Source of the DNA: an uncultured delta proteobacterium
Lineage (GTDB): Bacteria; Desulfobacterota; Binatia; UTPRO1
NCBI GenBank assembly: GCA_963774015.1
Contig: CAVZDH010000001.1
Coordinates: forward strand, 451,064 to 515,063
Direction of reading: 5' to 3'
Length of the DNA stretch: 64,000 bases
Part shown: one piece after another, positions 33,698-62,925 of the stretch
How the letters are laid out: every line of letters begins with the position of its first letter
How positions within the stretch are numbered: position 1 is the stretch's first letter
Position numbers and translations under genes: made by a program
Notes under the pieces: generated by a model
Told to the model about the DNA's origin: nothing
The model's input: the letters and a program-made list of their open reading frames with translations, nothing else
Database searches by the model: none

Positions 33698-33906
33698 CGT
33701 GGCGCCGCGCGCGCCGAAGAGCGCACGACGCTCCGCCGGCGCTGGTTGGTCGGTCGGAACGCGGTGGATGCCGCGGGGCGCGGACGGGCACGCGCACACG
33801 CCGGCGCCGTGACGGGCGTTACGGAATCGACGCTCCCGGACCCGTCGCCGGCGCGGGCAGCAACGGATCCCCCACACCGCAACGGCGCAATATCGGCGTC
33901 AACTGA

Positions 33907-37178: not shown

Positions 37179-37406
37179 GGGCACCTCGACGTGCCGGTGT
37201 AACTCGGTCCGGCATAGCAAGCCAACCGACCACCGAGCACGGAGCTGGTGCTTTTCGCCACCCCCATTCGCCAAGCCCTGAGCTTCGGGAGCGATGCGGC
37301 TCGGGAATCATCCCCCGAGGCGGAAAGCTCCGTCCGCCCGGACGCGAGGGTCAGGCGGGATCGTACGAGCTCACGGACGCGTGATGCGCGCTCGCCCGCT
37401 TGCGTG

Positions 37407-38879: not shown

Positions 38880-39035
38880 GCGACGCCTCCTGGGGCAGAG
38901 GGCCCGAAACGTGTCGGCAACCGGATGCCGTGGATGGATGATTCGGACCTACCGTCGACGGCGAGCGCGGGTCAAGAAAATTCCCGACCCGCGTCGAGGA
39001 AGCGCGCGCCATTTTGGCGCAGCCGTACGTGTCCC

Positions 39036-42522: not shown

Positions 42523-43110
42523 CCCGATCGCCAGATGATGACGACTGGTGATTCGCATCGTCGACTCCAGTCGCGCGAGGTTTCGCGCCGCTACGAAGAC
42601 CGCATGCGGTCCGTTGAGGGGGCCCGGTGGATCGCTACACTCATTGCGCGATCAGCGGAGGTGTCAAAGGAATTCGTCCACCACACTCACGAAAACGTGA
42701 TCCATTTCGGCATACGGATACCCGAGGATCGTGTCGTCATGGCGACGATCCGTGACGAGCTCCAGCTGCATCGCGCATGCCAACGCGTGACGCTGCCATC
42801 GCCCAGGGATTGTGTCGCCGTGATGTCGCTGCCGTTCTCGAATCGGGAAATTCTCCGCCGCCTTTTCTCAGCGCATGGACGGCGCGCCGCGGCCGCGGCG
42901 GCGCGCGATCACGTGGCCTTGCTACGACGGGGCGAATTGGGGAGTGCGACGACCAGGGAGGTTCCGCGGCAGTGGCGGTGATTTCGGGAACCGCGACAGA
43001 GGCGAGCGGTAGGCAGCGACGCGTGGTTCTTGCAGGCCGCAGTGCTGGCAGGCGGACGCCGCCCGCCATTGCGGCGAGCGGCGTCCCGTCCGTCCGAACG
43101 ACTACTTCTT

Positions 43111-45533
<2,423 letters not shown>

Positions 45534-45757
45534 GCGGGTGCCTCCTCCAAAAACTCGAGGCGGGAAGGGAGGACAGCCCGACCAGCCTCTAAGGTTTCGA
45601 GTGGTTGGCCGCCCGGACGAGAAGGCAAGGACGCCGTGACGTCTGCTTCCCGCGAGCGCTTCTGCGCACTCCCGACGAACTTGCCGGCCGCCCGAGGACG
45701 GGCCGGCATGAAAACCGGCGTTGTCTAGCATCGGACGGGGGGAATTGCGAGAGCGCG

Positions 45758-47128: not shown

Positions 47129-47896
47129 CTAGGCTGCGTTCTCGTAGAGCAACGCGTCCGTGATGTCCGCCAGCGGCCGGCAGTAGTCCTCGGCGAGCGC
47201 CTCGATCGATTCACCGGCGCGTTTTCGTTCAGCCACGATTCGGGTACGGATATCGGTTCCGGCGATCACGGGTCGCCCATAGGCGTAGCGTGGGTGAATC
47301 AGGATGCGTCGGGCACTCGGAGCGGGGCCATCGATCTGGGCTTCTGTAGCGAAGGGAAACACGCCGATAGCGCCTGCCGGGTCGAATTGAATGCGTTCCA
47401 AGTAGCGGATTAGGACGTCACGCATGCCAACCTGGGCAACCGATGGGCTATCGGAGATATTCAACACAACCGCATCTTCGAGCGAATCCAGAAACAGACT
47501 GTACCCGTCCGTCAGCATCCGCGACGTTGCTAACGGATGTTCGGATTTGAATTCCCTGCGCAGATGCACTATTGCGTTGCGTACTTTCGGTAGCTTGATC
47601 CCGTAACGACGCCGTACCGAATCGAGTACAAAAACTTCCACGAGATTCGTAAACGACAGCAAACCGCGTTCGCGGTCAGCTATCTTGATCAGCGGATGCC
47701 ACGTCCGGTGACCGTCAGATACCGGATAGTCTCGACCGTACACCCAGGTGCGAACGGTGCTCGCCGGAACCTTCAAGTAGCTCGCGGCGCTAGCGACTGG
47801 GTAGTTCGGGACATGTCGCGGATCGACATCGCGGTAGCTCAGTATCGTGTCCGCTTTTGGCATCTTGACGTACCTGCACCAAGCATACACGGGCAC
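47129..47896 (-). CDS. HTH plus DUF433 domain protein (putative antitoxin/regulator)
   Basis: C-terminal DUF433 signature RILIHPRYAYGRPVIAGTDIRTRIVAERKRAGESIEALAEDYCRPLADITDALLYE; N-terminal HTH-like segment (AASYLKVPASTVRTWVYGRDYP); central region unassigned. Confidence 0.65.
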   Translation of the reverse strand: MPVYAWCRYVKMPKADTILSYRDVDPRHVPNYPVASAASYLKVPASTVRTWVYGRDYPVSDGHRTWHPLIKIADRERGLLSFTNLVEVFVLDSVRRRYGIKLPKVRNAIVHLRREFKSEHPLATSRMLTDGYSLFLDSLEDAVVLNISDSPSVAQVGMRDVLIRYLERIQFDPAGAIGVFPFATEAQIDGPAPSARRILIHPRYAYGRPVIAGTDIRTRIVAERKRAGESIEALAEDYCRPLADITDALLYENAA

Positions 47897-48060
47897 GGCA
47901 GTTCAAGGGAGAGCCGTTTGCATTCGCTAAGTTAGCGGACTGCCGAGAACATCAAGGGGCTGGTCGTTCTCCGGTCGTGCGTCGAGACGGTAGATTACCG
48001 GGCGACAATCAGGTGAAACTTTTGCTTGACACTCAAGTATTATTGTCATATCATTGCGGC

Positions 48061-48969
48061 ATGAACAAGTTGCCGGTTGCCACGCGGGTCCAGATCCTCT
48101 CGATGCTCTGCGAAGGCTCCTCGATGCGCTCGATCAGCCGGGTCGCTGACGTCTCGATCAACACCGTCGCCCGCTACCTCGTGATCGCCGGCAAAGCGTG
48201 CAGCGCGTTCCACGACGTCACCGTTCGCAACGTCGCTGCGAAGCGCGTGCAGTGCGACGAAATCTGGTCGTTCGTCGGGATGAAGGAGAAGGCCGCGAAG
48301 GCGAAGGCGTCGAAGGACGAGCGACCCGCGAACGTCGGCGACGTGTGGACGTGGACAGCGATCGACGCCGACTCGAAGCTGATCGTGTCGTGGCTCCTCG
48401 GCGGTCGCGATGCAGGGTGCGCGTGGGAGTTCATGACCGACGTCGCGTCGCGGCTTGCGAACCGCGTGCAGCTCACGACCGACGCGCACAAGGCGTATCT
48501 CACGGTCGTGCCCGAGGCATTCGGCTTCAACGTCGACTACGCGCAGATCGTCAAGGTCTACGGCGCCGATCCGAAGGAGGATCAGCGCCGCTACTCCCCG
48601 GCGCAGTGCCTCGGCGCCGAGAAGCTGCACATTCACGGCTACCCGAAAGACGAACACATCTCGACGTCGTATATCGAGCGCAGCAACTTAACGCTCAGAA
48701 TGGCGAACCGCCGCTTCACGCGGTTGACCAATGCGTTCTCGAAGAAGCTGGAGAACCACGCGCACATGGTCGCGCTCTACACGTGCTGGTACAACTTCGT
48801 GAAGATGCACAAGACGATTGGCTGCACCCCCGCGATGGCGGCCGGCGTGATCGACACGCTCTGGTCGATGACCGATCTCGTGGCGCTCGTCGACAAGTAC
48901 GACGACGCGCAGCCGCGCAAGAAGGCGGGGCGTAAGCCGAAGGCGACCGATCCGGGTTCTCAGTCATGA
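48061..48969 (+). CDS. IS1-family transposase (fused InsA-like HTH and InsB-like DDE domain)
   Basis: InsB-like blocks VQCDEIWSFVGMKEK, WTWTAIDADSKLIVSW, LTTDAHKAYL, IERSNLTLRMANRRFTRLTNAFSKKLENHAHMVALYTCWYNFVKMH match E. coli IS1 InsB pattern (VQSDELWTFVG...IERHNLNLRQ...); N-terminal HTH VATRVQILSMLCEGSSMRSISRVADVSINTVARYL. Confidence 0.85.
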   Translation: MNKLPVATRVQILSMLCEGSSMRSISRVADVSINTVARYLVIAGKACSAFHDVTVRNVAAKRVQCDEIWSFVGMKEKAAKAKASKDERPANVGDVWTWTAIDADSKLIVSWLLGGRDAGCAWEFMTDVASRLANRVQLTTDAHKAYLTVVPEAFGFNVDYAQIVKVYGADPKEDQRRYSPAQCLGAEKLHIHGYPKDEHISTSYIERSNLTLRMANRRFTRLTNAFSKKLENHAHMVALYTCWYNFVKMHKTIGCTPAMAAGVIDTLWSMTDLVALVDKYDDAQPRKKAGRKPKATDPGSQS

Positions 48970-49162: not shown

Positions 49163-51085
49163 TGCGCCGGTCAAAACCGGCAAGGTGTTGTGGATGAAAG
49201 AGCCACACGATGAAGGAGTAGCGACCCACATCGGCCCCGAGTCATGCGTCGCTGTCCGTGAGGGCAGAGGCGAAGCGTTGACAGGGGTACGTGCAGGCCA
49301 GCCATGGAGCCGCGAAAATCAATTATAGCCTCGGGTGCCGACGCTCTTAGTGTAAGCGGAAGGCAACATCGCAGTGCGTCGATATCGCGAGAGGCGGCGG
49401 ACCCGGCGCGGTCGAAGACCCTGCGCATGCACGGAAACACTTTGCACGGGAACCGGGAGATCCCGCCACCGTCTGGGAGCCGGAGTGGCCCAGACCGCAT
49501 CGGGAAGTCGAGAGACGCAATCCGATGACGCACGGTGACGGGAAGTCGGACACCGCCGTAGTACCGAGAGAAGCTGCCGAACAAAGCTGCGGAACCAGCG
49601 GCGGAGGCGGTGGAGGGAAGGGCGGTGGCCAAGGGGAAGACGCTCGAGCGTAACACGCTCCGGACGCAGAGCCGGGAAGGTGTGCCCAGCGCGCTCGAGC
49701 GGATACGAGAGGCCGCAAGGCAACAGAAGCAGCTGCGTTTCACCGCGCTCCTGCACCACGTCTACGACGTCGAACGGCTGCGGCGGGCCTACTACGCACT
49801 GAAGCGAGAGGCGGCGGCGGGAATCGACGGGGAGACGTGGAAGCACTACGGCGAGCAGTTGGGAGAAAATCTGCAAGACCTGTCCCAGCGGCTCAAACGG
49901 GGAGCGTACCGAGCCAAGCCTGTACGGCGGGCGTACATCGAGAAGGCGGACGGGCGGCAGAGGCCGCTCGGCGTTCCCGTGCTGGAGGACAAGATCGTCC
50001 AGCGCGCCGTCGTCGAGGTGCTCAACGCCATTTACGAACAGGACTTTGCGAGGTTCTCGTATGGATTCCGCCCGGGGCGCGGACCGCATGATGCCCTGAA
50101 CGCGCTGACGGTGGCGATCCAGACCAGAAAGGTGAGCTGGGTGCTCGACGCGGACATCAGAAGCTTCTTCGACACGCTGGAACACAGCTGGTTGGTGAAG
50201 TTCGTCGAGCATCGGGTGGCAGACCGGCGCATCGTGCGCCTCATCCAGAAGTGGTTGAGGGCCGGGGTGCTGGAAGAAGGTCGGCGGACACGTAGCGAGG
50301 TAGGGACGGTACAGGGCGGAAGCATCAGCCCGCTGCTGGCCAATATCTACCTGCACTACGTGTTCGATCTGTGGACCCAGCGATGGAGAAAGAAGCAGGC
50401 GCGCGGACAGGTCATCGTCGTGCGCTACGCCGACGACTTCGTCCTTGGGTTCGAGCATCGCCACGAGGCCGAGCAGTTCCTCGTGGATCTCAAGCAGCGG
50501 TTTTCCCAGTTTGGCTTGGAGCTGCACCCGGAGAAGACCAGACTGATCGAGTTCGGGCGGTTCGCCGCCAGCAATCGCGATCGGCGAGGACAGGGAAAGC
50601 CCGAGACCTTCGACTTCCTTGGCTTCACGCACAGCTGCGGGAAGACGCGGAAGACGGGGAGCTTTGTGGTGCTGCGGCGAACGATGCGCAAGCGGATGGC
50701 GGCGAAGCTGCAGGAAGTGAAAGCCGAACTGCGACGACGTCGGCACACGACCCTTGGCGAGCAGGCGGAGTATCTGCGAGCGGTGGTGCAAGGGCACATG
50801 CGGTACTATGGCGTGCCCCGCAACTTTCCAGCGCTCAACGCGTTCCGCTGGGCGCTCGGCCGACTGTGGTGGCGGTCGTTAGGCCGCCGCAGTCAACGCG
50901 GCCGCATCCCCTGGCAGCGCATGACGCGTATCCTACGTCTGGCACTGCCGCGTGTTCGCATCTGTCATCCCTATCCGTCCTTGGACGCATCTCGTCAGAA
51001 CCTGAGGCAGGAGCCGGATGCGGTAATGCCGCACGTCCGGATCTGTGCGGGGGGCGCCGAGCGATCGGCGTCCCTACCGCGACCC
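49163..51085 (+). mobile_element. Bacterial group II intron (ribozyme plus intron-encoded protein)
   Basis: 5' end GTGCGCC at 49163 (consensus GUGYG); RT/maturase ORF; domain V-like hairpin at 51011-51043; GNRA-capped hairpin at 51050-51073; 3' end near 51083-51085 (CGAC/CC), boundary +/- 3 nt. Confidence 0.8.
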
Positions 51086-51130
51086 GCCGCGTGGGAGGCC
51101 CTCATGGCCGCTGCCGGGGCGGAGAGATAA
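49610..51130 (+). CDS. Group II intron-encoded reverse transcriptase/maturase
   Basis: RT domains 0-7 (RPLGVPVLEDKIVQRAVVEVLNAIYEQDFARFSYGFRPGRGPHDAL; DADIRSFFDTLEH; YADDFVLGF) and maturase X domain; no HNH endonuclease domain seen; computed ORF runs through domain V, so true C-terminus is uncertain. Confidence 0.9.
   Translation: MEGRAVAKGKTLERNTLRTQSREGVPSALERIREAARQQKQLRFTALLHHVYDVERLRRAYYALKREAAAGIDGETWKHYGEQLGENLQDLSQRLKRGAYRAKPVRRAYIEKADGRQRPLGVPVLEDKIVQRAVVEVLNAIYEQDFARFSYGFRPGRGPHDALNALTVAIQTRKVSWVLDADIRSFFDTLEHSWLVKFVEHRVADRRIVRLIQKWLRAGVLEEGRRTRSEVGTVQGGSISPLLANIYLHYVFDLWTQRWRKKQARGQVIVVRYADDFVLGFEHRHEAEQFLVDLKQRFSQFGLELHPEKTRLIEFGRFAASNRDRRGQGKPETFDFLGFTHSCGKTRKTGSFVVLRRTMRKRMAAKLQEVKAELRRRRHTTLGEQAEYLRAVVQGHMRYYGVPRNFPALNAFRWALGRLWWRSLGRRSQRGRIPWQRMTRILRLALPRVRICHPYPSLDASRQNLRQEPDAVMPHVRICAGGAERSASLPRPAAWEALMAAAGAER
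51011..51043 (+). ncRNA. Group II intron catalytic domain V
   Basis: GAGCCGGAUGCGG-UAAU-GCCGCACGUCCGGAUC closely matches the domain V consensus GAGCCGUAUGCGAU-GAAA-GUCGCACGUACGGUUC, including the AGC triad. Confidence 0.6.
51086..51095. repeat. Right copy of 10-bp flanking direct repeat GCCGCGTGGG
   Basis: Identical to 45758-45767; lies just 3' of the group II intron. Confidence 0.55.
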
Positions 51131-51143
51131 GAAGGCGCCACCC

Positions 51144-51644
51144 GTGGACTTCGAGCTCCGCATCATCGGACGCGCCCGCACCCCGTGGACGCGCCGCGAG
51201 GACGCCCCGCACCAGCCCCCGGCGTCGCCGGAGACGCGGGGCATCGTGGAGATCGACCCGCCGTATCGCGAGGCGCTCGCCGATCTCGGGGGCTTCGGCC
51301 GTATTTGGTTAATTTTTCATTTCAACCGCAGCGGCGGCTGGGGTCCGAAGGTCCGACCCCCGCGCGGCGGACCGAAACGCGGCCTCTTCGCGACCCGCGC
51401 TCCGGACCGGCCGTCGCCGCTCGGCCTCACCAACGTGGCGCTCGAGTCGGTCGACCTCGAGCGCGGCACGGTCCACGTCCTCGGCCTCGACCTTCTCGAC
51501 GAGACGCCGATCCTCGACATCAAGCCGTATCTGCCGATGTTCGACGCCTGGCCCGATGCCGGGCACGGTTGGATCGAGCCGTATCTCGAGGCGGGCATCG
51601 AGCCGCGGCTCAAGCGGCCGAAGCGCGTGCTGCCGCGGGGGTGA
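51144..51644 (+). CDS. trmO: tRNA (N6-threonylcarbamoyladenosine) methyltransferase TrmO/TsaA family protein
   Basis: YaeB/TsaA-like motifs (RIWLIFHFNRSGGWGPKVRPPRGGPKRGLFATRAPDRPSPLGLTNV; DETPILDIKPYLPMFDA); GTG start. Confidence 0.8.
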   Translation: MDFELRIIGRARTPWTRREDAPHQPPASPETRGIVEIDPPYREALADLGGFGRIWLIFHFNRSGGWGPKVRPPRGGPKRGLFATRAPDRPSPLGLTNVALESVDLERGTVHVLGLDLLDETPILDIKPYLPMFDAWPDAGHGWIEPYLEAGIEPRLKRPKRVLPRG

Positions 51645-51678: not shown

Positions 51679-52320
51679 TCAGCGCCACGCCGGGAGGAGG
51701 GCCGGGGTCCGCGCTCGATAGCGAGCGTACTCCTCGCCGAGACCGGCGAGCATCGTCCGCTCCTCGACCCGGATCCGGTAGAGGTAGGCGGGCACGACCG
51801 CGGCGCCGACGAGGCCGAGGCCGAGGACGCTCCCGAGCGCGATCGCCGTCCCGGTCACGGTGAGGATGCTTCCCGTGTAGGAAGGATGGCGCATCCATCG
51901 GTACGGGCCGTGCGAGAGGACGCGCTGATCGTCCTGCACCACGACCGCCGACGTGAAGAACCGCCCGAGCGTGCGGATCGCCACGAGCCTGAGCCCCATC
52001 CCGAGGGCCGCGATTGCGATGCCGCCGGCGACGGTCGCCGAGGCCGGCGCCGGCGTCACGACGTCGCGCGCCGCGAACTGCAGGACGGACGCGAGGTTCG
52101 CGATCACCACCGCCAGGAAGATCAGCAAGGCCGAGCGGCGGTCGTTCGGGTCCGTGACGAGGTCCGCGGGCGACAGCGGCGGTTGCGACGACAGCGTGAG
52201 GAAGGCGCAGACGAAGCCCGCCCACGGCCCCGGATGCCGAAGGTAGGAAGCACCCGCCAGCGCCGGAGCGAGCAGGAACACGGCGGCGGGTATCGCGAGA
52301 TACGTGAGCAGGCGCTTCAC
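51679..52320 (-). CDS. Isoprenylcysteine carboxyl methyltransferase (ICMT/PEMT) family membrane methyltransferase
   Basis: 213 aa, 4-5 TM helices and C-terminal ICMT-type block (LSHGPYRWMRHPSYTGSIL...VEERTMLAGLGEEYARYRARTP); GTG start overlaps upstream stop. Confidence 0.7.
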   Translation of the reverse strand: MKRLLTYLAIPAAVFLLAPALAGASYLRHPGPWAGFVCAFLTLSSQPPLSPADLVTDPNDRRSALLIFLAVVIANLASVLQFAARDVVTPAPASATVAGGIAIAALGMGLRLVAIRTLGRFFTSAVVVQDDQRVLSHGPYRWMRHPSYTGSILTVTGTAIALGSVLGLGLVGAAVVPAYLYRIRVEERTMLAGLGEEYARYRARTPALLPAWR

Positions 52321-53756
52321 GGCTCGCTTCGCTTGTGCGCGCGCAGCGTGTCCTGCATCCGGGCGAGCGCGGTCTTGGTGAGGTCGTGCTCCACCTCGAC
52401 GAGGCTCGCGAGGTAGCGCTCGTAGCCGTCGCGCGACAACTTGAGCACGGTGAGCGGCGTCGACGCAATCACATCGGCGGTGCGCTCTCCACCCGCGATG
52501 AGCGCGATCTCGCCGAAGTAGTCGCGCGGCCCGAGCTCGCGCACCTTCACGTGACGACCGTCCGGCGTCGTGAGCTTCACCTCCGCGGTGCCTTCCTCGA
52601 TCAGGAACAGGTCCTCGCCGGCGTCGCCCTGGCGGACCACGTGCGTTCCCGCGTCGTACGACCAGCGTTCGAGGCACGTCGCCAGCACGGCGGCCTCGGC
52701 GACCGAGAGCTCGCGAAACAGCGTCGTCGTGCGCAGCCATTCCCCGACGTCGAGCAACTGCCGGCGCACCGCCATGTGACCGCCTTGCTCGGGCACTGGC
52801 GTATCGGAGAGCGCGGGCAGACCCTCGGGAGGGCAAAGACTGCTCGGCAGCGGCTTGGCGCCGCCCTTCAACTCGAGGAGCGCGATAAGTCCTTCCTCCC
52901 TCGGTGCCGCGAGCGCAGCCTCGATCGCCGCAAAACGCGTGCTGGAAAGCTCCGACGAGAGGAACGCGTACGGGTAGCGCGTCCGGTTTTGATAGTTGAA
53001 GAACCCGAAGGAGCCTTCCGTGGCGTACGGGATGACGCCGTGAAGTACGACGGTCGGCATGTGAAAGAAGTCCTGACTCTTCTTGGCGACGGCGAGCTCG
53101 AGGTCTCCGACGCACGCCTCGATCTCGTGGTGGAGCGATTCGCTCAGGATACGACACGCCGCCAACAGCAACTCCACCGGGCCTCGCGCCGAGAGCTCGT
53201 CCAGAGGAGGCCGGAAGTGGGTTTTCATCAGGCGACCCGCCTCGCGAACGCGTTGCGCCGGAAGGTCGGGCAAGATGCGCAGACGATCGAAGATTCCGCG
53301 GCCGAAGACCTCCTCGACGGGAAACAGCGGCCGACGCGCATCACGCATGATCGCGGCCGGCGGGACGTCGGCCAGCGCCTTGAACGTCCCATACGCGAGG
53401 ATCTCACCCGTTTCGGCGGCCCCGGAGAGGACATGCACGTCGGCCGGCGTCACACCCGAGAGCGGCTCGTGCCGCAGGCGCTCCGCGTGGATCAACCGCG
53501 GGTCCAGCTGGTGCGCCATCAGGTACTGCGCGAGCCGGAACGTCATGATCGCGACCAGCTGCTCCTCGGTGAGGCTCGGCGTGCGGAGCGCGACCGTGCT
53601 GACGCCGTGGCGGTCCTCGACCCAATACAACGCCTCGGGGTGGCGCCTCTGGAAGAGCTCCGGCAGGCGGATCGCGGCGGCGCGGTCGAGGAGCTCGCGG
53701 ATGAACGCGTCGACCTCCGGCTCGAGACCGACCAGGATGTCGTCGACGGCGGCCAT
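52317..53756 (-). CDS. Cyclic nucleotide-binding domain protein with uncharacterised ~320-aa N-terminal domain
   Basis: C-terminal cNMP-binding fold (ERWSYDAGTHVVRQGDAGEDLFLIEEGTAEVK...YFGEIALIAGGERTADVIA); N-terminal two-thirds matched nothing I recognise; start is 2 nt after the giant upstream gene's stop. Confidence 0.7.
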   Translation of the reverse strand: MAAVDDILVGLEPEVDAFIRELLDRAAAIRLPELFQRRHPEALYWVEDRHGVSTVALRTPSLTEEQLVAIMTFRLAQYLMAHQLDPRLIHAERLRHEPLSGVTPADVHVLSGAAETGEILAYGTFKALADVPPAAIMRDARRPLFPVEEVFGRGIFDRLRILPDLPAQRVREAGRLMKTHFRPPLDELSARGPVELLLAACRILSESLHHEIEACVGDLELAVAKKSQDFFHMPTVVLHGVIPYATEGSFGFFNYQNRTRYPYAFLSSELSSTRFAAIEAALAAPREEGLIALLELKGGAKPLPSSLCPPEGLPALSDTPVPEQGGHMAVRRQLLDVGEWLRTTTLFRELSVAEAAVLATCLERWSYDAGTHVVRQGDAGEDLFLIEEGTAEVKLTTPDGRHVKVRELGPRDYFGEIALIAGGERTADVIASTPLTVLKLSRDGYERYLASLVEVEHDLTKTALARMQDTLRAHKRSEP

Positions 53757-53758
53757 CG

Positions 53759-56700
53759 TCAGTCGGCCTTGGCGGCGAACGTCGTCGCGTCCTGCTTCTT
53801 GAAAGGCGCGCTGAAGACGGACTCCCAGCACGTGCCGGTCGCGTGGTTCACGAGCTGCACGCGCACGGGCGAGAGCAAGGCGGCGAGGCTCGGCGGCATG
53901 TCGAGCCGGTCCCCCTTGCCCTTCACCTGGATCTTGGCCTTGCCGGCGACGAGACCTTCGCGGAGCTGGAGCTGCGCGACGCCGTCCGGCGTGAGGTCGC
54001 CGTCCTTGTAGTCGAAACCCGTCTTCTTCTCGCGCCAGCACGCCTTGCCCTTGGCGCAGAAGCCGCCGGGCGGCACGATCGCCGTCGTGACGAGCCCGGT
54101 CGCGTCGTAGAGGCAGAGCTCGTAGCGGTCGGTGGTGAGCGGCTGCCCGAAATCGGCCTTCGTCGTGACGGCGCCCCTCGCCCACTTCCAGGCGAGCTGG
54201 TCCTTGGCGTCGGGGCTCTTGTCCTTGAGGAGCAGGCTCGCCTTGCCGGCGACGGCCGGCAAGCGGCAGCCGGCGAGCGGCGCCGGCGCGCACTCGCGGA
54301 GACAATCGGAGGAGCAGCCGTCGCCGCTCGCGGTGTTACCGTCGTCGCATTCCTCGGCGAGCTCGAGCACGCCGTCGCCGCAGGTCTGCACGTCGCAGGC
54401 GTCGCCCGTGCCGTCGCCGTCGGTGTCGCTTTGCGAGGGGTCGAAGGCCTCGGGACAATCGTCCTGCGCGTCCGGGACGCCGTCGTCGTCGGCATCGGCG
54501 GGCGTCGTCACGGCGGTCACGAGGGTCGGGAGGCAGCTCGCCCCGCTCGGGCAGTCGGGCGGCGTCGTCACCTCGGGACGACACGTCGCCGGCTGCCGCA
54601 GGATGCAGCGCCGGCAGTCGACGTCGGTCGCGCAGGCGAGCCCGGTGTAGCGCGTGCAGGTTCCGGTCGCGGTCGCGCAGGTGTCGAGGTCGCAGAAGGA
54701 GCCCGCGCCGCAGTCGGCGTCGACACCGCAGGGGATCGCGAGGTCGCAACGCCCGGCGGGGGCGAGGAAGACGCGCGTGTCCTCGGGCACGCGGAGCGGA
54801 TCCTGCCCGCCCGGGTCGACACGGCCGATCACCGTCACCGTCTCGGTGCAGAAGTCGTAGACCTGAATCACGAGGTCGCCGGGAAAGCCCTCGACGCTCA
54901 GGTCCTGGCCGCCCTGCTCGGCCTCGAGCGTCAGGAACGTCACCTTACTGCCGTCGATCTTGTAGGGTTCGCGCGGATCGCAGGCAGCGAGCCGGCACGG
55001 CGTCACCGCCTGGCGCACGTTCTTGAGCTCGCCGCTCACGGCGTCGTAGACCTGCAGCACGTCGTCGAGCGTATCGACGTCGGCCGGCACGCCGACGCCG
55101 CCGTTCAGGTTGGTGGCGTTCTCGGCCGCTTCGTTGGCGCTGAACGCCACGAGCTGCCGCGCGCCGCAGGTGGTCACCGCGGGCGCACCCAGCACGAAGT
55201 CGTCGGCCGCGACCCGGACGCCGGCCGTGCAGCTCGGCGCTCCGGGGCCGGTCGGCGTGCAGGCGAGCGGCGTGCCGGCGAGCGAGTACACCTGCAGCAC
55301 GCGGTCGGTCGCGTCGACGTCGGCGTTCAGCAGCGCGCCGCCCTGCACCGCCTCCGACGTGAGGAAGCCGACGACGTCACCGTTGATCGCGAGCGCCTCG
55401 CCGGCTTGCCCGGTGCTGATCCACGACCCCGCCGTCGCACCCGGGAGGGCATTCACCGCGACGACGTCGTCGCCGGCGTCGCCGTCGCCGTTCAGATCCG
55501 TTCCGCCGTCCGGGCATCCCGTGGTCACGGCGCCCGCCGTTCCGCACTCCGAGACGAGCGCCGCGAGCCCGCTCGTCGACGCCGCGACCGCCGTCGCCGC
55601 GCGCGCGAGGTTCACGACTGATCCGCCCTCCCAGAGCTGCACCACGTCGTCCGTCGTGTCGGCGTCCGGCGGGTTCAACGACCCGCCCGGACACGCGCCG
55701 GTCCCGACCGCCGACTCGGGCCGCAGGAACACCGCCGTCCCGTCGCTCGCCACCGCGACGTCGTCGGCGGGACAGAGCGTCGTCGTCGTCGCGCTCGCGG
55801 AATCGAGCACCTCGAGGACGGTGTCGTCGAGCGCGCCGTCGGCGAAGAGCGCATCGGCGCCGAGGGGGTCGGCGGGGTCAGTGCCGTGGACGAAGACGTC
55901 CCGGAAGCCGTTGGTGTCGTTGCCGACCCCGACGAGATTCGTCGCGTCGCTCAGGAACGCCACCTCGCGGGCGTCGCGCGACAGCCCGAGGAAGCCGTTC
56001 ACCGTACCACCTCCGCCGGTGGCCTCCTCGCCGGCGAGGCCGACGTTCACGCGCGTGGTCACGCCGCTCTCGCGGTCGGAGAGGAAGATGTCGCCGGCCC
56101 CGTTCGTGTCGAGCCCGGCGCCGAGGAGATTCGTCGCGCTGCTGTAGAACGCGACGTACCGCCCGTCCGGCGAGATCGTGACGTCGGTCGGCGGAGCGTC
56201 CGGGCTCGTCCCGCCGGGACCGCGTCCGACGAGCGTCGTCACCCCCGTCAAACGATCGTGGACGAAAGCATCGGTCGCGCCGTTGACGTCTGCTTCTGCT
56301 GTGAGATTGCTCGCGCCGCTCTCGAACGCGACGAAGCGACCGTCGGCGGACATCGTGACGCGAGAGAAGCCGGATGCGCCATTGCTCTCGATGCCGCCGG
56401 GTCCGATGCTGACCCGCTCGTTCGCACCGGTCTGCCGGTCACGCACGAAGACGTCCGAGACGCCGTTGGTGTCGAGACCCGGGTCGAGGAGGTTCGAAGC
56501 GGTGCTCGTGAAGGCGACGTAGCGCCCGTCGGCGGAGATGGCGGGCCACTCACCGGATCCGCTCGGCGGCTCCGCGCCGCCTGGACCGACGTCGACCCGC
56601 TCCGTCGTGCCGAGCAAGCGGTCGCGCACGAAGACGTCGCGGTTGCCGTTGGTGTCGCCACCCGGCCCGAGCAGATTGGTCGCATCGGACGCGAAGACCA

Positions 56701-59008
56701 CGAAGCGACCGTCGGCAGAGAGCGCCGGAATTACCGAGTGGCCGTCGCCTTCGAGGCCGCCGGGCCCGACGCTCACGCGCTCGGTCACGCCCGTCCCGAG
56801 ATCGTGCACGAAGACGTCGATGAAGCCGTTGGTGTCGCCCCCCGGCCCGAGCAGGTTGGTCGCATCGCTTGCGAAGGCGACGTGCTGCCCGTCGGCCGAG
56901 ATGGCGACGAACCCCGAACCTACGAACGGTGTGCCGTTGGCCTCGAGGCCGCCCGGGCCCACGCTCACGCGTGTCGTCGTGCCCGCCACGCGATCCCGGA
57001 CGAAGACGTCCTCGGCTCCGTTCGTATCGCCGCCCGGTCCGAGGAGATTCGCCGACGTGCTGGAGAAGGCGACGTACCGACCGTCTGCCGAAATGCCGAG
57101 GCCTGCGTTCGTCGAGCCGCCGCCCGCGCTCGCCTCGACGCCGCCCGGACCGAGGTTCGCGCGCCCGGTCGTCTGCTGCGCCGCTCCCGTCTCCGGCCGC
57201 CGGTAGAATACCTCGCCGCTCGCCACCATCAGGCCCTGCCCGTTGATCCGCGGCGCCGGGTCGACGACGCGCGGCGGGCTCAGGCTCGCGGTCACCTCGC
57301 CGGCGCCGAGCTTGAAGACGCGCAGGATCGCGTCCGCGCGGTCGTAGTCGCCGTTCTCGTCGCAGTAGTTCTGCGCTGCCTCCGACTCGAGGAAGGCGAG
57401 GACGTCGTTCTCGACCGCGACGGCGGGGAACGAGAACACGCCGTCCTGCACGCGCACGGCGGCGCGGCCCTCGGGCGTACCGGCGAGGCCGCACGCGGGG
57501 AGCGGCGCACCGCCGACCGCGAAGCCGTCGGGTGCGCCGAGCGGCTGCACGACGCCGGTCGCGCGGTCGCGGAGGATCGCGACTGCATCCAGCAGATCCG
57601 TGTCGCCGTTCCGCTGCACGCCGTCGATCGCCTCCTCGACGACGAACGAGCGAAGGTCCGGGCTCGCGGCGAGGCCGTCGAGCGGGACCGGCGTGTTGGC
57701 CTGGATGCTGTAGCCGACGCAGGCGTTGAAAGCCCCCGGGCAGTCGCCCGGGCCGCTGCACGCTTGATAGGGCGTGAGCTGGCAACGACGCGGGGCCGCG
57801 CGGTCGAGGTAGAGGCCGCCGGCCGTGCTCGCGCCGGCAAGGTCGTAGAGCGCGCCGCAGGGCGCGGCACCGCCGCAGTCGCCGTCGGTCGCGCAGGGGA
57901 GCGCCGGGTTGCCGACGCAGCTCGTCGCGCACGTTCCGCCCGGACAATCGAGGATGGTCGCGCAGCGCGCGCCCGCGTTCGCGCCGGCGCTGCACGTACC
58001 GTGGTGGCGCGCGACGCGGAGGATCGTGTAGGGCGCGTCGGTCGAGCCGAAGAAGCGCACGAAGTCGGAGGTGCTCGCCGATTGATCGAGCTGGGGCTCG
58101 AAGATCGGTCCGAGACGCTTCCCTTCGGGCGTGAAGCTCGTGAGGAACACTTGCGCCGGGATCTGCACCGGGAAGCCCACCGGCGCGCTGATCGCGGTGC
58201 TGAGGAGGCGCGGCACCGGTACGCGCGCTTGCGGCACGAGGATGCCTTGCCAGGCGATCGGCATCAGCACGTTGCCGCTCGCGTCGAGCGCGGCGCGGAG
58301 TTCCGGCGCCGTCGGGTTGCAGGGCGGGTCGAGGAAGCAGTCGCGCTGGTAGTCGTTCGGCGGCGGCAGCGCGGTGAAGCTCGCGAACTCGGGGTTCGGG
58401 ATCCCCGTGCCGCAGCTGCCGTCGTTCACGAAGAAGTCGTCGATGCAGGCGACCAGCCCGCTCTGCGCGGCGCACGGCACCGCCGCCAGGTTGCAGGGGA
58501 GCGGATCGGTGCGGCGCGTGACGGCGATCCGCGCCGGACCCGCGAGTGTGCGGTCGTCGCTCGGGGTGCCGACCGCGTCGTCGGTGTCGGGGAAGCGGAA
58601 GCCGAGCTCCACGTGCCCTTCGCGCTCGACCGTCGCGAGCCCCGCGGTCGCGTCGGCGACGCACGCGAGCATCGCGGGCGGGAGGTCGCAGGCCGCGAGC
58701 TGGTGTGCGAGCGCGTCGCAGTCCGCGTCGGGCGAGAGCACGCGGAGCGCGTTCGTGCCCGATCCCGGGAACGCCACCGTCACGACGTAGTCGCCGGTCG
58801 TGAGCGAGAGGCCGGGCGACCCGGCGGCGTCACAGGAGCGGAGCGCCACCGCGACGCGCTCGCCGGGCGCCGCGTAGGGCCGGTCGGTCGTCCCGAGGAC
58901 GCCGTTGAAGGAGGCAGTGGTGCCAGGGATCAAGTTGCACCCGGCCTGCACGATGCGCGGCAGGGCGAGCAGCAGCAGGATCGTCAAGAGCGAACGGGCG
59001 GCCCGCAT
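53759..59008 (-). CDS. Giant secreted protein (1749 aa): TolB-like beta-propeller repeats, thrombospondin type-3 calcium-binding repeats, myxo-type cysteine-rich repeat and conserved C-terminal domain
   Basis: Signal peptide MRAARSLLTILLLLALPRIVQAG; 9 or more tandem ~53-aa repeats (ISADGRYVAFSSTSANLLGPGGDTNGAEDVFVRDRVAGTTTRVSVGPGG); TSP3-like DADDDGVPDAQDDCPEAFDPSQSDTDGDGTGDACD; Cys-rich CGDGVLELAEECDDGNTASGDGCSSDC; C-terminal domain shared with the 5129-6851 protein. Confidence 0.85.
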   Translation of the reverse strand: MRAARSLLTILLLLALPRIVQAGCNLIPGTTASFNGVLGTTDRPYAAPGERVAVALRSCDAAGSPGLSLTTGDYVVTVAFPGSGTNALRVLSPDADCDALAHQLAACDLPPAMLACVADATAGLATVEREGHVELGFRFPDTDDAVGTPSDDRTLAGPARIAVTRRTDPLPCNLAAVPCAAQSGLVACIDDFFVNDGSCGTGIPNPEFASFTALPPPNDYQRDCFLDPPCNPTAPELRAALDASGNVLMPIAWQGILVPQARVPVPRLLSTAISAPVGFPVQIPAQVFLTSFTPEGKRLGPIFEPQLDQSASTSDFVRFFGSTDAPYTILRVARHHGTCSAGANAGARCATILDCPGGTCATSCVGNPALPCATDGDCGGAAPCGALYDLAGASTAGGLYLDRAAPRRCQLTPYQACSGPGDCPGAFNACVGYSIQANTPVPLDGLAASPDLRSFVVEEAIDGVQRNGDTDLLDAVAILRDRATGVVQPLGAPDGFAVGGAPLPACGLAGTPEGRAAVRVQDGVFSFPAVAVENDVLAFLESEAAQNYCDENGDYDRADAILRVFKLGAGEVTASLSPPRVVDPAPRINGQGLMVASGEVFYRRPETGAAQQTTGRANLGPGGVEASAGGGSTNAGLGISADGRYVAFSSTSANLLGPGGDTNGAEDVFVRDRVAGTTTRVSVGPGGLEANGTPFVGSGFVAISADGQHVAFASDATNLLGPGGDTNGFIDVFVHDLGTGVTERVSVGPGGLEGDGHSVIPALSADGRFVVFASDATNLLGPGGDTNGNRDVFVRDRLLGTTERVDVGPGGAEPPSGSGEWPAISADGRYVAFTSTASNLLDPGLDTNGVSDVFVRDRQTGANERVSIGPGGIESNGASGFSRVTMSADGRFVAFESGASNLTAEADVNGATDAFVHDRLTGVTTLVGRGPGGTSPDAPPTDVTISPDGRYVAFYSSATNLLGAGLDTNGAGDIFLSDRESGVTTRVNVGLAGEEATGGGGTVNGFLGLSRDAREVAFLSDATNLVGVGNDTNGFRDVFVHGTDPADPLGADALFADGALDDTVLEVLDSASATTTTLCPADDVAVASDGTAVFLRPESAVGTGACPGGSLNPPDADTTDDVVQLWEGGSVVNLARAATAVAASTSGLAALVSECGTAGAVTTGCPDGGTDLNGDGDAGDDVVAVNALPGATAGSWISTGQAGEALAINGDVVGFLTSEAVQGGALLNADVDATDRVLQVYSLAGTPLACTPTGPGAPSCTAGVRVAADDFVLGAPAVTTCGARQLVAFSANEAAENATNLNGGVGVPADVDTLDDVLQVYDAVSGELKNVRQAVTPCRLAACDPREPYKIDGSKVTFLTLEAEQGGQDLSVEGFPGDLVIQVYDFCTETVTVIGRVDPGGQDPLRVPEDTRVFLAPAGRCDLAIPCGVDADCGAGSFCDLDTCATATGTCTRYTGLACATDVDCRRCILRQPATCRPEVTTPPDCPSGASCLPTLVTAVTTPADADDDGVPDAQDDCPEAFDPSQSDTDGDGTGDACDVQTCGDGVLELAEECDDGNTASGDGCSSDCLRECAPAPLAGCRLPAVAGKASLLLKDKSPDAKDQLAWKWARGAVTTKADFGQPLTTDRYELCLYDATGLVTTAIVPPGGFCAKGKACWREKKTGFDYKDGDLTPDGVAQLQLREGLVAGKAKIQVKGKGDRLDMPPSLAALLSPVRVQLVNHATGTCWESVFSAPFKKQDATTFAAKAD

Positions 59009-59058
59009 CGGGATGTCCTCCAGAGTGCACGAGCGACGAAGCGGAGCCCGAGCACGAA

Positions 59059-59108
59059 GCAGATCGAACCTATCGAGGTGAAAACGTCGGTTCACGCACA
59101 AAGACTGC
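59059..59108. repeat. Left copy of ~50-bp imperfect direct repeat flanking a lower-GC cassette
   Basis: AGCAGATCGAACCTATCGAGGTGAAAACGTCGGTTCACGCACAAAGACTG vs 60071-60120 AGCAGATCGAATGACATCGAAGATTCGAACGTCAGTTCACGCAGAGATTG (~80% identity with small indels); on the minus strand the stop TGA of the right copy corresponds to CGA in this copy. Confidence 0.6.
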
Positions 59109-59383
59109 TCGAACCTTTGCACAGCCTTGGCTCCCTGCCAAAGAAAACGGCGACCAAGAACCTGCGCCAATTTAGTGCAACGAGAATCGCGGTCAGAGTT
59201 CTCGCGAAAAGCTTCGACGGACGTCTCCCCGCCGCTGCCGTCATCATCGTGTCCCGCGGCGTCGGCACCGGTTTGGCGAGGCGAAAGTGTCATCAGTCGG
59301 CCAGCGGTCTCACGGCGAGGTGCAGTGAGTTCTCCGAGCAGGTCGCGGAAGCCCCCGAGCGGTGGTCACGCCACTACCAAAGC

Positions 59384-60070: not shown

Positions 60071-60120
60071 AGCAGATCGAATGACATCGAAGATTCGAAC
60101 GTCAGTTCACGCAGAGATTG
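60071..60120. repeat. Right copy of ~50-bp imperfect direct repeat (overlaps the 3' end of the 60102-62771 gene)
   Basis: See 59059-59108; this copy includes the terminal codons (NLCVN-stop) of the adjacent secreted protein gene. Confidence 0.6.
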
Positions 60121-62771
60121 GATTTCTGGATCGTCAACTTTCCGTAGCCGCGGTCCGCGAAGAAGCCGTCGACCACGAAGAAGTACTTGTGTCCGGAGAG
60201 CAACGAGATCTCGGTCTCCTCTCCTTTGCCGCCGTCGGGACAGTCGAAGTTGTCGTTGAAACAGCGCAGCTCCGAGCCCGTGCAGGTGTGGAATTGGGGA
60301 TCCTCGTCGCGGGCATACAGCTCGGTGTCGAAGTCGCTACGGCACGTCGTGAACTCGTAGCACCCGTCGCTTGACGGCGTGAAGCTGAAGACCTTTTCCG
60401 GGCCGGTGGTGCCGGTGACGTCGCACGAGCCGTTCTGCGTCGAGGCTCCCGAAGTTTGGGCTCCGACGATGACGACCGGGTATGGGTCGGCTTGCGACCC
60501 GGGGACCGCGCTCGGGATCGCGTAGGCGTTGCCGCACGTGCCGCCGCCTCCGCAGCCGCCACCGCAGTCGACGCAAAAATAGTCGTACTCGTCGACGACG
60601 TCGCCGCCGCGGGTGTCGCCGTTGTTGCAGCCCGCGTTCGGGAAGGTGCCGCAGTGCGCCTTCACACGTGTCGTTCCATCGACGCGGAGCTCCGCGCCGT
60701 AGATGTAGCCGTTGGCGCCGTTTTGGACCTTGACGTTGAGCACGTTCTCGCCGCAGAGGAGGGCGCTCGAAACATCGGCGAATCCGGTATCCTGTCCGTA
60801 GCTCGTTGCGGACAGGACCGGCTGCCCGTTGAGAAATGCGTCGATGCGATCGTCGGTGTCGTAGAGCCGAAGCGTCGCGACGTGGGGGGTGGCCGTGACG
60901 GTGGGTGTCGGCGTGCGGGTGGCGGTGGCGCTCGGCGTGAGTGTCGGCGTCGGCGTGCGCGTCGCCGTTCGAGTCGGAGTCGACGTCGAGACCGCAGTGG
61001 CGGTTGCGGTCGTGCTCGGAGTCGCAGTGCGCGTAGCGGTGACAACCGGCGTGGCCGTGATCGTCGGTGTTGCCGTCGGAGTCGAGACGGTGGTCGTCGT
61101 GGCCGTCGGCGGCGCGGTCGGCGTGGCGACGGGTGTCGTGCTAGGCGTCGGCGTGCTCGTCGGCGTCGTCGGCGGAGCGTCCGGATCCATCACGACCAGG
61201 AGCGGCGTGTACGCGCTCACCTCGCCGTCGACGCGGGTCGCGAGGCCGAGGGTGAAGGCGCAGGTCGGGAGCGGATCGAAGAACTCGACGTCGAGCTCGT
61301 CCTCCACTTCGGCATCGGGCGTCGGCGGCGGCTCGAGCTCCACCTCGAAGTGATCGGGATCACCTTGACCGTCGAGCAAGGTCACGATCAGCTGCGGCGG
61401 TTCGGTGAGCACGCCGGCAGCGGCTCGCGTCTTCGAGCCTCCGAGCGTGTAGCGGAAGGGGATCTTTGTGAGTGGACCGAAGGCTGGTCGGGAGACGAAG
61501 CTCACGGATCTCGGTGCACCGGGCCTCGCGAGCGGCGCGCCCGAAAGTCGGAGGCCGATCGTGGTCGAGCGCCGGATCGAGCGGATGATCTTCAACAAGC
61601 TGCCGAAGACCGAGTGCGGCGCCGCAATCGCCGGCGCCGCTTCGGTCAGTGCGGGACAAGTGGCAACGAGGTCCGGGGCGATCGCGCCGAGGCCGACCGT
61701 GTCGTCGAGGTCGGCGACGCGCGGTAACGCCTGCTGCGCGCCTTCGGCAGCCGAGCAGCGGGCCCGACGCGCGAGGCAGTCGGCGAGCGTTCCCGGACCC
61801 GTGACCGCCGGGACGCCGAGCGCGGTGCATGCCGGTTCGAGCGCTGTGAGGTTGAGGCCGTTGTCGGCCAGGAGCCGCGTGAAATCGACCACATCGGCCG
61901 CGCACTTGCCGTTTGTGAAGGTTTTCGTGAACCGCGTCAGGAGGCCGGCGATCTTCGCCGGCTGCTGGTTGCACGTCGTCGTGGTTTTCCGCTGGCAGAT
62001 CGTCGCGTCCTTGCTCGTCTGGGCGCACTCGAATGCCTTGGTCGCGCAACGAAGCAGGCTCTTCTGTACGCCGACGAGCAGCGTCTCGAGCGCATGGCTC
62101 GCCGCCTTGGCGCACGCGTTCACGGGCGTATCGTCGGGAGGCACGACGAAACAATCGCCGCAGCCCGGATATCGCGGCAGGCCATCGACCGTCGGCAGCG
62201 GCAAAGGCGCGTCGGGGAGAAGGTCGAGCAACTCGGCGCTGCGGGGCGCGCCGCGACCGTAGAGATCCGCGGCGGCGCGATCGGGGAGGCGTACCAAACA
62301 GGCTGCGAGCGGTGCGATGCCCTGGCAGACGTCGAGGCCGAGATCGCTCCGGCATCGGCTGGCGAGACGCCCGAGGCCGAGGCCTTCCTCTTTCAAAAGG
62401 TCCACGAGGTGCAGCTTCTCGTGACAGCTGGCGTTCGTGACGATCTTCGCCGCGAGCGCCGTCAGCGTCTTGTCGGTGCTCGCGAGCTTCTTCGCACAAC
62501 GCGCCGCCACCTTTCCGAGACACGTCGCATCGTCCCCTTTGGTCTGTATGCATGCCAGCGCGCCTCCGATGCACGTGTCGAGCACGTGCCCACGCTGCTG
62601 CTCTATTTTGGTGCTGGTTTTTGCGATCAACTTTTGACACGCGATCGCGGCTTTGCGTGCGAGCACGGTGGAGAGACCAGCGCTCGCGGTCACTCCGGCG
62701 GCTGGCGTCGTGAGGACGACGACTGCTGCCGCGAGGACGAGGCCGACGACCCAGTTCCTGCTCATTCTCAT
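60102..62771 (-). CDS. Secreted protein with Cys-rich helical N-terminal region, Thr/Pro-rich linker and C-terminal pre-peptidase-C-terminal-like domain
   Basis: Signal peptide MRMSRNWVVGLVLAAAVVVLTTPAAG; ~95-aa TP-rich low-complexity linker (TPTSTPTPSTTPVATPTAPPTATTTTV...); C-terminal Cys-containing beta-sandwich-like region. Confidence 0.7.
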   Translation of the reverse strand: MRMSRNWVVGLVLAAAVVVLTTPAAGVTASAGLSTVLARKAAIACQKLIAKTSTKIEQQRGHVLDTCIGGALACIQTKGDDATCLGKVAARCAKKLASTDKTLTALAAKIVTNASCHEKLHLVDLLKEEGLGLGRLASRCRSDLGLDVCQGIAPLAACLVRLPDRAAADLYGRGAPRSAELLDLLPDAPLPLPTVDGLPRYPGCGDCFVVPPDDTPVNACAKAASHALETLLVGVQKSLLRCATKAFECAQTSKDATICQRKTTTTCNQQPAKIAGLLTRFTKTFTNGKCAADVVDFTRLLADNGLNLTALEPACTALGVPAVTGPGTLADCLARRARCSAAEGAQQALPRVADLDDTVGLGAIAPDLVATCPALTEAAPAIAAPHSVFGSLLKIIRSIRRSTTIGLRLSGAPLARPGAPRSVSFVSRPAFGPLTKIPFRYTLGGSKTRAAAGVLTEPPQLIVTLLDGQGDPDHFEVELEPPPTPDAEVEDELDVEFFDPLPTCAFTLGLATRVDGEVSAYTPLLVVMDPDAPPTTPTSTPTPSTTPVATPTAPPTATTTTVSTPTATPTITATPVVTATRTATPSTTATATAVSTSTPTRTATRTPTPTLTPSATATRTPTPTVTATPHVATLRLYDTDDRIDAFLNGQPVLSATSYGQDTGFADVSSALLCGENVLNVKVQNGANGYIYGAELRVDGTTRVKAHCGTFPNAGCNNGDTRGGDVVDEYDYFCVDCGGGCGGGGTCGNAYAIPSAVPGSQADPYPVVIVGAQTSGASTQNGSCDVTGTTGPEKVFSFTPSSDGCYEFTTCRSDFDTELYARDEDPQFHTCTGSELRCFNDNFDCPDGGKGEETEISLLSGHKYFFVVDGFFADRGYGKLTIQKSNLCVN

Positions 62772-62925
62772 TCGCGATCCGGATGACGGCGCGTCGCTGT
62801 CGCGACGCAGAAGAAACTCTCCTCCTCTCACGAGGTGTGAAAATCGTGGGAACAGATGTTCCACGAGCTTTCACACCACTCTCGTCAGAACGCTCTCGCG
62901 CGGATGCGGGAAGGAGCCGAGACGT

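Follow-up and report, generated by a model that had tools for sequence, protein, structure and literature searches.

The locus and its protein

The DNA considered here is a stretch of 64,000 nucleotides from contig CAVZDH010000001.1 of an uncultured Binatia bacterium (the window). At 52317..53756, on the reverse strand, it carries a complete gene, here called the target, for a cytosolic protein that, according to structural models, joins a LuxI/FeeM-like GNAT-fold domain (the N-domain), a conserved linker and a cyclic-nucleotide-binding (CNB) domain. A membrane methyltransferase gene follows directly downstream, and a gene for a large repeat protein precedes it. The parts of the target are as follows (aa, amino acids; ORF, open reading frame).

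52317..53756 (-): target gene, ATG start, 479 aa plus stop, from the ORF and its translation
52866..53675 (-): GNAT-superfamily core of an uncatalogued family, aa ~28-297
53223..53246 (-): motif REAGRLMK (family consensus RELGRFVKN) at the end of strand beta4, aa 171-178
52752..52865 (-): conserved linker from the enzyme domain to the CNB domain, aa 298-335, from conservation in family alignments
52320..52751 (-): CNB domain with N-terminal helices, beta-barrel and C-terminal helix, aa 336-479
52464..52517 (-): phosphate-binding cassette FGEIALIAGGERTADVIA, aa 414-431, with G415, E416, R425, T426 and A427

The gene lies where an earlier, sequence-only reading of this DNA had placed it, and both peptides quoted there are found in the translation (FGEIALIAGGERTADVIA at aa 414-431, VLHGVIPYATEGSFGFFNYQNRTRYPYAFLSS at aa 237-268). 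Its GC fractions at codon positions 1/2/3 (0.72/0.45/0.87) show the same signature as the flanking genes; therefore the frame is a real reading frame. Among 5.8 billion proteins searched, at least 185 are homologues with 43-70% identity, the top-scoring ones being full length, so the target is a conserved gene and a chance ORF is excluded. AlphaFold2 (AF2) modelled the full-length protein with a mean predicted local distance difference test score (pLDDT) of 93.6 and a predicted template modelling score (pTM) of 0.89, and the N-domain by itself with values of 91.3 and 0.90.

An uncatalogued domain with a GNAT-type fold

Residues 1-335 gave no Pfam match at E≤10, a set of 24 family members gave no consistent weak match to Pfam, and NCBIfam recognised nothing outside the CNB domain. 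A family profile of the N-domain found no significant match among PDB sequences (the best, SmD3 at E 0.028, is due to chance), a phmmer search of PDB sequences with the target left the N-domain without a match, and a profile search from a core alignment of both subfamilies (CNB-fused and ThiF-fused) reached no bridging family. By these searches no catalogued sequence family accommodates the N-terminal ~335 aa. The sequence-only reading had also been unable to name a domain in this region, and a clear match of a hidden Markov model (HMM) to a known enzyme family, which it had named as the finding that would overturn its claim, was not obtained from Pfam, NCBIfam or PDB profiles. Assignment to the LuxI family (PF00765, Autoind_synth) was likewise not supported at the sequence level, neither the target nor the 24 relatives matching that model at E≤10, and FeeM-type membership was not supported either, for lack of any Pfam or NCBIfam match.

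Structure prediction combined with fold search, a check that the earlier reading had suggested, places the N-domain in the GNAT superfamily, nearest to the N-acyl synthases of the LuxI/FeeM type. Independently, Foldseek gave the top ranks to TofI, LasI and BjaI (E 3e-5 to 3e-4). The model of the N-domain has a mixed beta-sheet, the alpha/beta GNAT topology and the V-shaped cleft between beta4 and beta5; in the predicted structure it shows the three-dimensional fold of LuxI-type enzymes as well as fold similarity to the N-acyl amino-acid synthase FeeM.

Overall identity between the CNB-fused and ThiF-fused subfamilies is only 19-28%. Thirteen residues are shared without exception by both (Y78, E97, H108, Y122, R142, E148, G152, E172, G174, R175, G217, E220 and P262), 10 of them polar or aromatic, and they are located on helix alpha1 and strands beta2, beta3, beta4 and beta5. 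R74 is not conserved in the ThiF-fused subfamily. In GNAT enzymes the V-cleft region is the binding place of donor and acceptor. Because these 13 residues are invariant and placed, in the model, where GNATs bind both substrates, the pattern argues for a conserved active site.

The motif REAGRLMK lies at the end of the beta4 strand (residues 170-173); E172, G174 and R175 do not vary, and conservation of K178 is at least 90%. Its position and pattern recall the WE-x-SRF motif of LuxI, of which E-x-S-R is invariant in our LuxI alignment (A5), and it would sit at the acyl-donor site of GNAT enzymes. Among the LasI residues R23, F27, W33, D44, D47, R70, E101, S103 and R104, a comparison by position finds a resemblance in the target only at the beta4 element E172-x-G174-R175-F. 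What the family appears to share with LuxI enzymes is thus the fold and an E-x-G-R-F motif closing beta4, reminiscent of the E-x-S-R-F of LuxI.

The CNB domain and the linker

The sole Pfam match of the whole protein is PF00027 (cNMP_binding, aa 366-450, E 3.2e-20, 72.3 bits against a cut-off of 27.5). Matches to PDB sequences are confined to aa 330-475, the best being PKA regulatory subunits (E 4.5e-27). The CNB fold is therefore limited to the C-terminal ~140 aa, close to the ~130 aa proposed before. The domain has the eight-stranded beta-barrel with flanking helices, and across 108 homologues G415 and E416 of the phosphate-binding cassette are invariant, with R425 and A427 at least 90% conserved. 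Since the Gly-Glu and Arg-Thr-Ala elements of the cassette are kept, this canonical CNB domain looks binding-competent. Its ligand is most likely cAMP or cGMP.

No helix-turn-helix (HTH) was found after the CNB domain: a single helix (aa 453-477) lies between the barrel and the stop, the protein ends 24 aa past the start of the barrel's last helix, and Pfam gave no HTH match. NCBIfam models of CRP, FnrL and similar proteins align with the CNB part only, at 18-33 bits against cut-offs of 266-300 (33 bits against 266 for the CRP/FNR models). The missing winged HTH and these sub-cut-off scores rule out a transcription regulator of the Crp/Fnr type, as had been supposed from the sequence. PADLOC matches were restricted to aa 355-477, that is to the CNB domain, with E~1e-9, and neither a cyclase nor an effector domain of the Pycsar type was detected; a Pycsar or other defence system was rejected on these grounds, and the earlier hint at cyclic pyrimidines as ligands is not supported.

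The linker residues S305, G312, L316, M328 and R331 are invariant among CNB-fused members (alignments A1 and A4); in a larger alignment (A2) only M328 and R331 are invariant, S305, G312 and L316 being at least 90% conserved. In AF2 models the linker has a pLDDT of 54-65 when modelled without the CNB domain versus 83-94 with it. It is retained in stand-alone homologues such as P0128 and absent from the ThiF-fused subfamily.

Family size, hosts and architectures

The family is rare, with about 300 clusters at 50% identity: a phmmer search with the N-domain against 1.84 billion representatives at this level yielded 308 proteins at E≤1e-3, 192 of which reached E≤1e-10. In data with one genome per species, 40 of 40 loci (numbered with the prefix L) came from metagenome-assembled genomes (MAGs). 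Their hosts include Candidatus Binatia (the closest, 67%), Thermomicrobiales, Nitrolancea and other Chloroflexota, as well as Gaiellales, Thermoleophilaceae and other Actinomycetota, Gemmatimonadaceae, Vicinamibacteria and several Proteobacteria. In this collection CNB-fused members were seen only in uncultured genomes; the ThiF-fused form is carried by the cultured Aquipseudomonas campi and Pseudomonas sp. CAU 1711. The following architectures occur.

N-domain and one CNB domain: the majority
N-domain and two CNB domains: ~620 aa
N-domain alone: ~320-340 aa
N-domain, CNB domain and FAD_binding_4: P0125
N-domain, CNB domain and LCM methyltransferase: P0175
ThiF and N-domain: P0259 and ~45 further clusters at 90% identity, ~580 aa

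A literature search for a CNB domain fused to an N-acyl synthase or LuxI, or for a description of the family, found no relevant paper.

Gene neighbourhoods

Two genes on the same strand enclose the target.

51679..52320 (-): ICMT/PEMT-family membrane methyltransferase, 213 aa, GTG start, directly downstream
53759..59293 (-): PD40-repeat protein, 1844 aa, upstream, its stop 2 nt before the target ATG

The TGA stop of the target overlaps the GTG start of the methyltransferase gene (GTGA at 52317-52320). The methyltransferase matches the Pfam families ICMT (1.8e-17) and PEMT (3.1e-16), and the NCBIfam model for isoprenylcysteine O-methyltransferase at 1.5e-16, under its cut-off. A pair with the same stop/start overlap is found in L046, which holds the closest homologue of the target (70% identical), and in L008, from a Piscinibacter MAG. 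The upstream 1844-aa protein contains many PD40-like repeats ('ISADGRYVAF...DTNG..DVFV'; Pfam PD40 1.4e-14) and a C-terminal Cys-rich DUF4215 repeat (1.6e-5, 25.5 bits, gathering cut-off 27). Its gene may be co-transcribed with the target. It was rejected as a conserved partner, being absent beside homologues; a relative with 34% identity was seen solely in the Binatia locus L006, away from the homologue.

In other lineages the CNB-fused homologues have other partners. A GlcD-like FAD_binding_4 gene lies immediately downstream in L001/L007 (one contig), L006, L010 and L047 and is fused in P0125, and an LCM-type methyltransferase gene takes this place in five actinomycetotal loci and is fused in P0175. 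An MmpL transporter gene is found directly downstream in ~12 loci and within 10 kb in 17, mostly in Chloroflexota; these clusters also hold a ScyD/ScyE-family propeller-cupredoxin, a ThiF-CNB protein, SnoaL-like proteins, a CrtI-like desaturase, an S8 peptidase and a GAF protein. A gene for a ThiF-like adenylyltransferase, often with a CNB domain of its own, adjoins the homologue in eight loci. ICMT here and LCM elsewhere are thus two unrelated families, both named for carboxyl methylation, that recur as partners, and lipid exporters recur likewise. Homologues of MmpL, ThiF, patatin, LCM or FAD_binding_4 were not found anywhere in the 64-kb window, a single class III cyclase query gave no cyclase match there, and none turned up among the neighbouring genes scanned. 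LuxR-type genes were not found among the scanned window genes or in the CNB-fused loci inspected.

Several neighbours of the homologues deserve mention in their own right. The commonest upstream neighbour in Chloroflexota and Actinomycetota (L003:6282-7919 (+) and equivalents, 19 loci) is the ScyD/ScyE-family beta-propeller with a cupredoxin domain (NCBIfam NF033206, 194 bits, cut-off 80; amicyanin-like C-terminus), whose family name, taken from the scytonemin pathway, hints at periplasmic maturation of a small molecule. Convergent to the target-ICMT pair of L046 lies a gene (L046:2966-4855 (-)) for a 629-aa protein with an N-terminal CNB domain and a C-terminal patatin-like phospholipase (RssA-like). 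This arrangement suggests a shared module for lipid remodelling under the control of a cyclic nucleoside monophosphate (cNMP); patatin lipase genes are also near homologues in L001/L007 and L006. Three small ORFs of 67-110 aa are extremely Thr-rich (L003:5625-5921 (-), L005:5640-5972 (-) and L004:16415-16618 (+)). Two of them have a conserved N-terminal motif in common (TTFVQTLQTWRETL..EQQTLLD.ILTTATTT) and are placed alike, upstream of the ScyE-like gene in MmpL-type clusters. The small ORFs may encode precursor peptides, be spurious calls or have another explanation.

In four gammaproteobacterial loci (L048:4803-13521, L050:7001-15369, L051:7001-15621 and L052:7001-15612), whose hosts include cultured Aquipseudomonas campi (CP053697.2, bases 715350-717098), the gene of the ThiF-fused sister subfamily is the first of a strictly conserved operon. 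The fusion, annotated merely as 'ThiF family adenylyltransferase', is followed by genes for an acyl-CoA dehydrogenase, an MMPL/HAE3 transporter of the resistance-nodulation-division (RND) type, a protein of ~300 aa (381 aa in L048) without an assigned family, DUF1329 and DUF1302. The four genes from the transporter to DUF1302 are counterparts of the AmeABCD-type hydrophobe/amphiphile efflux cassette known from Castellaniella (PMC6394551). In a P. putida fitness study, DUF1302/DUF1329 genes were linked to growth on fatty esters, with cofitness with RND-efflux genes in other Pseudomonas (bioRxiv 10.1101/2020.07.04.188060). Directly upstream of the fusion, L048 has a LuxR-type regulator with Autoind_bind and GerE domains, L050 and L052 have a PAS protein, and L051 has a short ORF with a weak PAS_8 match. 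These LuxR/PAS and efflux neighbours are the strongest, though anecdotal, hint at a small-molecule product that is sensed and exported.

Proposed function

We propose that the target makes an amphiphilic small molecule as an N-acyltransferase gated by a cNMP, a reading to which we give about an even chance. The analysis directly supports the gene itself, its fold and domain limits, the pattern of conservation and the linked genes; the catalysis, the acyl donor and acceptor, the nucleotide ligand, whether its binding activates or inhibits, and what the methyltransferase does are all putative. LuxI-type synthases of acyl-homoserine lactones (AHLs) and FeeM transfer a fatty or aryl acyl group from an acyl carrier protein (acyl-ACP) or acyl-CoA onto the amine of an amino-acid-type acceptor. 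By analogy, the GNAT/LuxI-like domain would transfer an acyl group to such an acceptor and give an amphiphilic N-acylated product, most likely a lipoamino-acid or a signal-like compound. The CNB domain would switch the enzyme on or off allosterically through the conserved linker; the control of mycobacterial Pat by cAMP is a precedent. At the present locus the translationally coupled ICMT/PEMT membrane methyltransferase probably methylates the product next, and in other lineages the product would undergo LCM-type methylation, oxidation by the GlcD-like flavoenzyme or export by MmpL/HAE3 RND transporters. Given the recurrent ICMT and LCM partners and the lipid exporters, a lipoamino-acid-like product with a free carboxylate would fit better than an AHL.

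Several points weigh against this proposal. A sequence-level tie of the N-domain to LuxI, FeeM or any GNAT family was not found, and hhalign gave a probability of 0.2% for the family profile versus a LuxI profile built from PDB sequences (LasI/TofI/BjaI/RpaI). The active-site equivalences were placed by secondary-structure position, not by superposition. GNAT motif A (Q/R-x-x-G-x-G/A, the CoA pyrophosphate site in the beta4-alpha3 loop) is only partly matched, the corresponding region reading R171-E-x-G174-R175-F/L with a last position other than G/A; the canonical motif is also missing from LuxI-type enzymes. The near-equal ICMT and PEMT scores suggest that the methyl acceptor could be a carboxylate, an amine or a thiol. 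The 64-kb window holds no ACP, acyl-CoA ligase, cyclase, MmpL or ThiF gene, and a LuxR-type neighbour is present in only one of the four sister-subfamily loci. Finally, partner genes vary by lineage, so the product may vary too.

It is unlikely, in our judgement, that the target is instead a cNMP-regulated protein acyltransferase acting on lysines or N-termini, an analogue of Pat/KATmt with reversed domain order. The known cAMP-activated lysine acetyltransferase likewise combines a CNB and a GNAT domain, a Pat model is the best NCBIfam match, and Rv0998 and the M. smegmatis enzyme appear in the Foldseek list (ranks 11, 30 and 38). Genes for Usp and AMP-binding proteins, which are Pat substrates in mycobacteria, lie near the homologue at one locus each (L003 and L004). 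The GNAT clade is a different one, however, and the gene context is not protein-centred.

The ThiF fusions raise another alternative, namely a transferase that forms amides or esters and draws on an acyl- or aminoacyl-adenylate or a thiocarboxylate from a ThiF-like E1 in place of acyl-ACP or acyl-CoA, with chemistry unlike that of LuxI and FeeM. The Rosetta-stone fusion of ThiF and N-domain (~45 clusters of ~580 aa, cultured strains included), the ThiF neighbour, often CNB-bearing, in eight loci, and the established fact that LuxI-type pockets hold S-adenosylmethionine, an adenosyl-bearing substrate, all speak for it. We nevertheless consider it improbable: neither the window nor the ICMT-, LCM- and FAD_binding_4-type loci contain a ThiF homologue, no ubiquitin-like carrier gene was recognised beside ThiF in the two loci checked (L003 and L004, where only the Thr-rich small ORFs were seen), and we know of no GNAT-fold enzyme that uses an E1-made adenylate.

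That the target is a true AHL synthase, with quorum sensing gated by a cyclic nucleotide, is suggested by the LuxI-like fold but very unlikely. The Autoind_synth HMM does not match and profile-profile similarity is lacking; no LuxR gene was found in the scanned part of the window or in the CNB-fused loci examined; and the hosts are mostly Chloroflexota, Actinomycetota and Binatia, in which AHL signalling is to our knowledge uncommon. Dedicated MmpL export is foreign to AHL systems, and methylation of a free carboxylate by ICMT or LCM would be a misfit, an AHL having none, a point tempered by the near-equal PEMT score.

Least probable of all is a cNMP sensor or adaptor without catalytic function, or an anti-phage effector of the Pycsar type sensing cyclic pyrimidines, as the matches are confined to the shared CNB fold and far weaker than those to PKA and PKG, no adjoining cyclase, TIR or pore-forming domain occurs among the genes scanned, the invariant polar cleft residues speak for catalysis, and the conserved neighbourhoods are biosynthetic and export-related rather than defence islands. 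The predicted GNAT fold makes the target most likely an enzyme under cNMP control rather than a pure sensor.

Returning to the cNMP-gated N-acyltransferase, its wider version would make the family and its ThiF-fused cousins second-messenger-gated or E1-coupled synthases of an exported acylated signal or lipid, with chemistry unlike that of LuxI; this generalisation is tentative, and we regard it as doubtful. If it is true, intracellular cAMP or cGMP would directly license the production of an extracellular amphiphile in Binatia, Chloroflexota and Actinomycetota, with a LuxR- or PAS-sensed version in Pseudomonas-like Gammaproteobacteria. If the N-acyltransferase reading itself is right, the target would represent a second, independent cyclic-nucleotide-controlled acyltransferase with a GNAT fold after mycobacterial Pat and, unlike the protein acetyltransferase Pat, would come from the clade of signal and lipid N-acyl synthases. 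It would also stand for an enzyme family absent from Pfam, comprising ~300 clusters at 50% identity and found mainly in uncultured soil and sediment phyla. The ties to MmpL/HAE3, to enzymes of the carboxyl-methyltransferase type and to ThiF point to a class of exported acylated metabolites wired to second-messenger state. With the ThiF-fused form present in cultured Aquipseudomonas and Pseudomonas, the chemistry is accessible without cultivating Binatia, and proteins now labelled "hypothetical", "CRP-like cAMP-binding protein" or "ThiF family adenylyltransferase" receive a fold-based name.

Other features of the window

Elsewhere in the window a complete group II intron and several further genes were observed.

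49197-51130 (+): complete group II intron; Rfam group-II-D1D4-6 at 49197-49421 (180 bits), domain V/VI model at 51009-51083, reverse-transcriptase/maturase ORF at 49610-51130 between the Rfam matches
51045-51644: TrmO-like tRNA methyltransferase gene, the reverse-transcriptase/maturase ORF lying just upstream
47977-48969: IS1-like transposase
47129-47896: DUF433/HTH_66 gene
42737-43807 (-) and 44982-45731 (-): H+-translocating pyrophosphatase, apparently split
39919-42651 (-): 910-aa repeat protein with SdrD_B, SpaA-like and DUF7450 repeats
35145-37307 (-): CLC chloride channel with CBS and TrkA_C domains
32561-33898, 37371-38948 and 60102-62870: sizeable ORFs with coding-like GC at third codon positions and without a Pfam match

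The two pyrophosphatase ORFs cover positions 556-644 and 3-98, respectively, of the 645 positions of the Pfam profile, which suggests a disrupted gene or pseudogene; the transposase and the DUF433/HTH_66 gene are located nearby.

Comparison with known systems

The likeness of the target to LuxI AHL synthases (LasI 1RO5, TofI 3P2H, RpaI 6WN0, MesI 6WNS, BjaI 5W8x, EsaI 1KZF; PF00765) is one of fold. The target domain exceeds them by ~100 aa and carries a helical extension at its N-terminus, two helices at its C-terminus and the conserved linker. In contrast to LuxI, the family has no detectable sequence homology to these enzymes, is fused to CNB or ThiF, usually misses a LuxR partner and is linked to methyltransferases, flavoenzymes and MmpL exporters. 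Towards the FeeM-type N-acyl amino-acid synthases (2G0B) and related lipoamino-acid N-acyltransferases sequence similarity is likewise lacking, and no adjoining ACP gene was seen in the loci of the target family examined; we know of no report of CNB or ThiF fusions in that group.

Like the target, the CNB-patatin lipases (L046:2966-4855; NTE-like architecture) would represent a lipid-acting enzyme under CNB control, but their catalytic fold, a patatin alpha/beta hydrolase, is unrelated, and none is present in the window. In Pat/KATmt (Rv0998, MSMEG_5458; 4AVA/4AVB, 4ORF; NF058543) the CNB domain precedes the GNAT domain, whereas the order is reversed in the target. As an equivalog of Pat the target was rejected, since it scores 48.9 bits against a cut-off of 460 for NF058543 and covers profile positions 3-122 of 317, which correspond to the CNB domain only. 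CNB sensors, GNAT-fold acyltransferases and a CNB-GNAT enzyme (Pat) are thus known already; new are the uncatalogued LuxI/FeeM-like GNAT family, its CNB and ThiF fusions, and the consistency with which tailoring and export genes accompany it.

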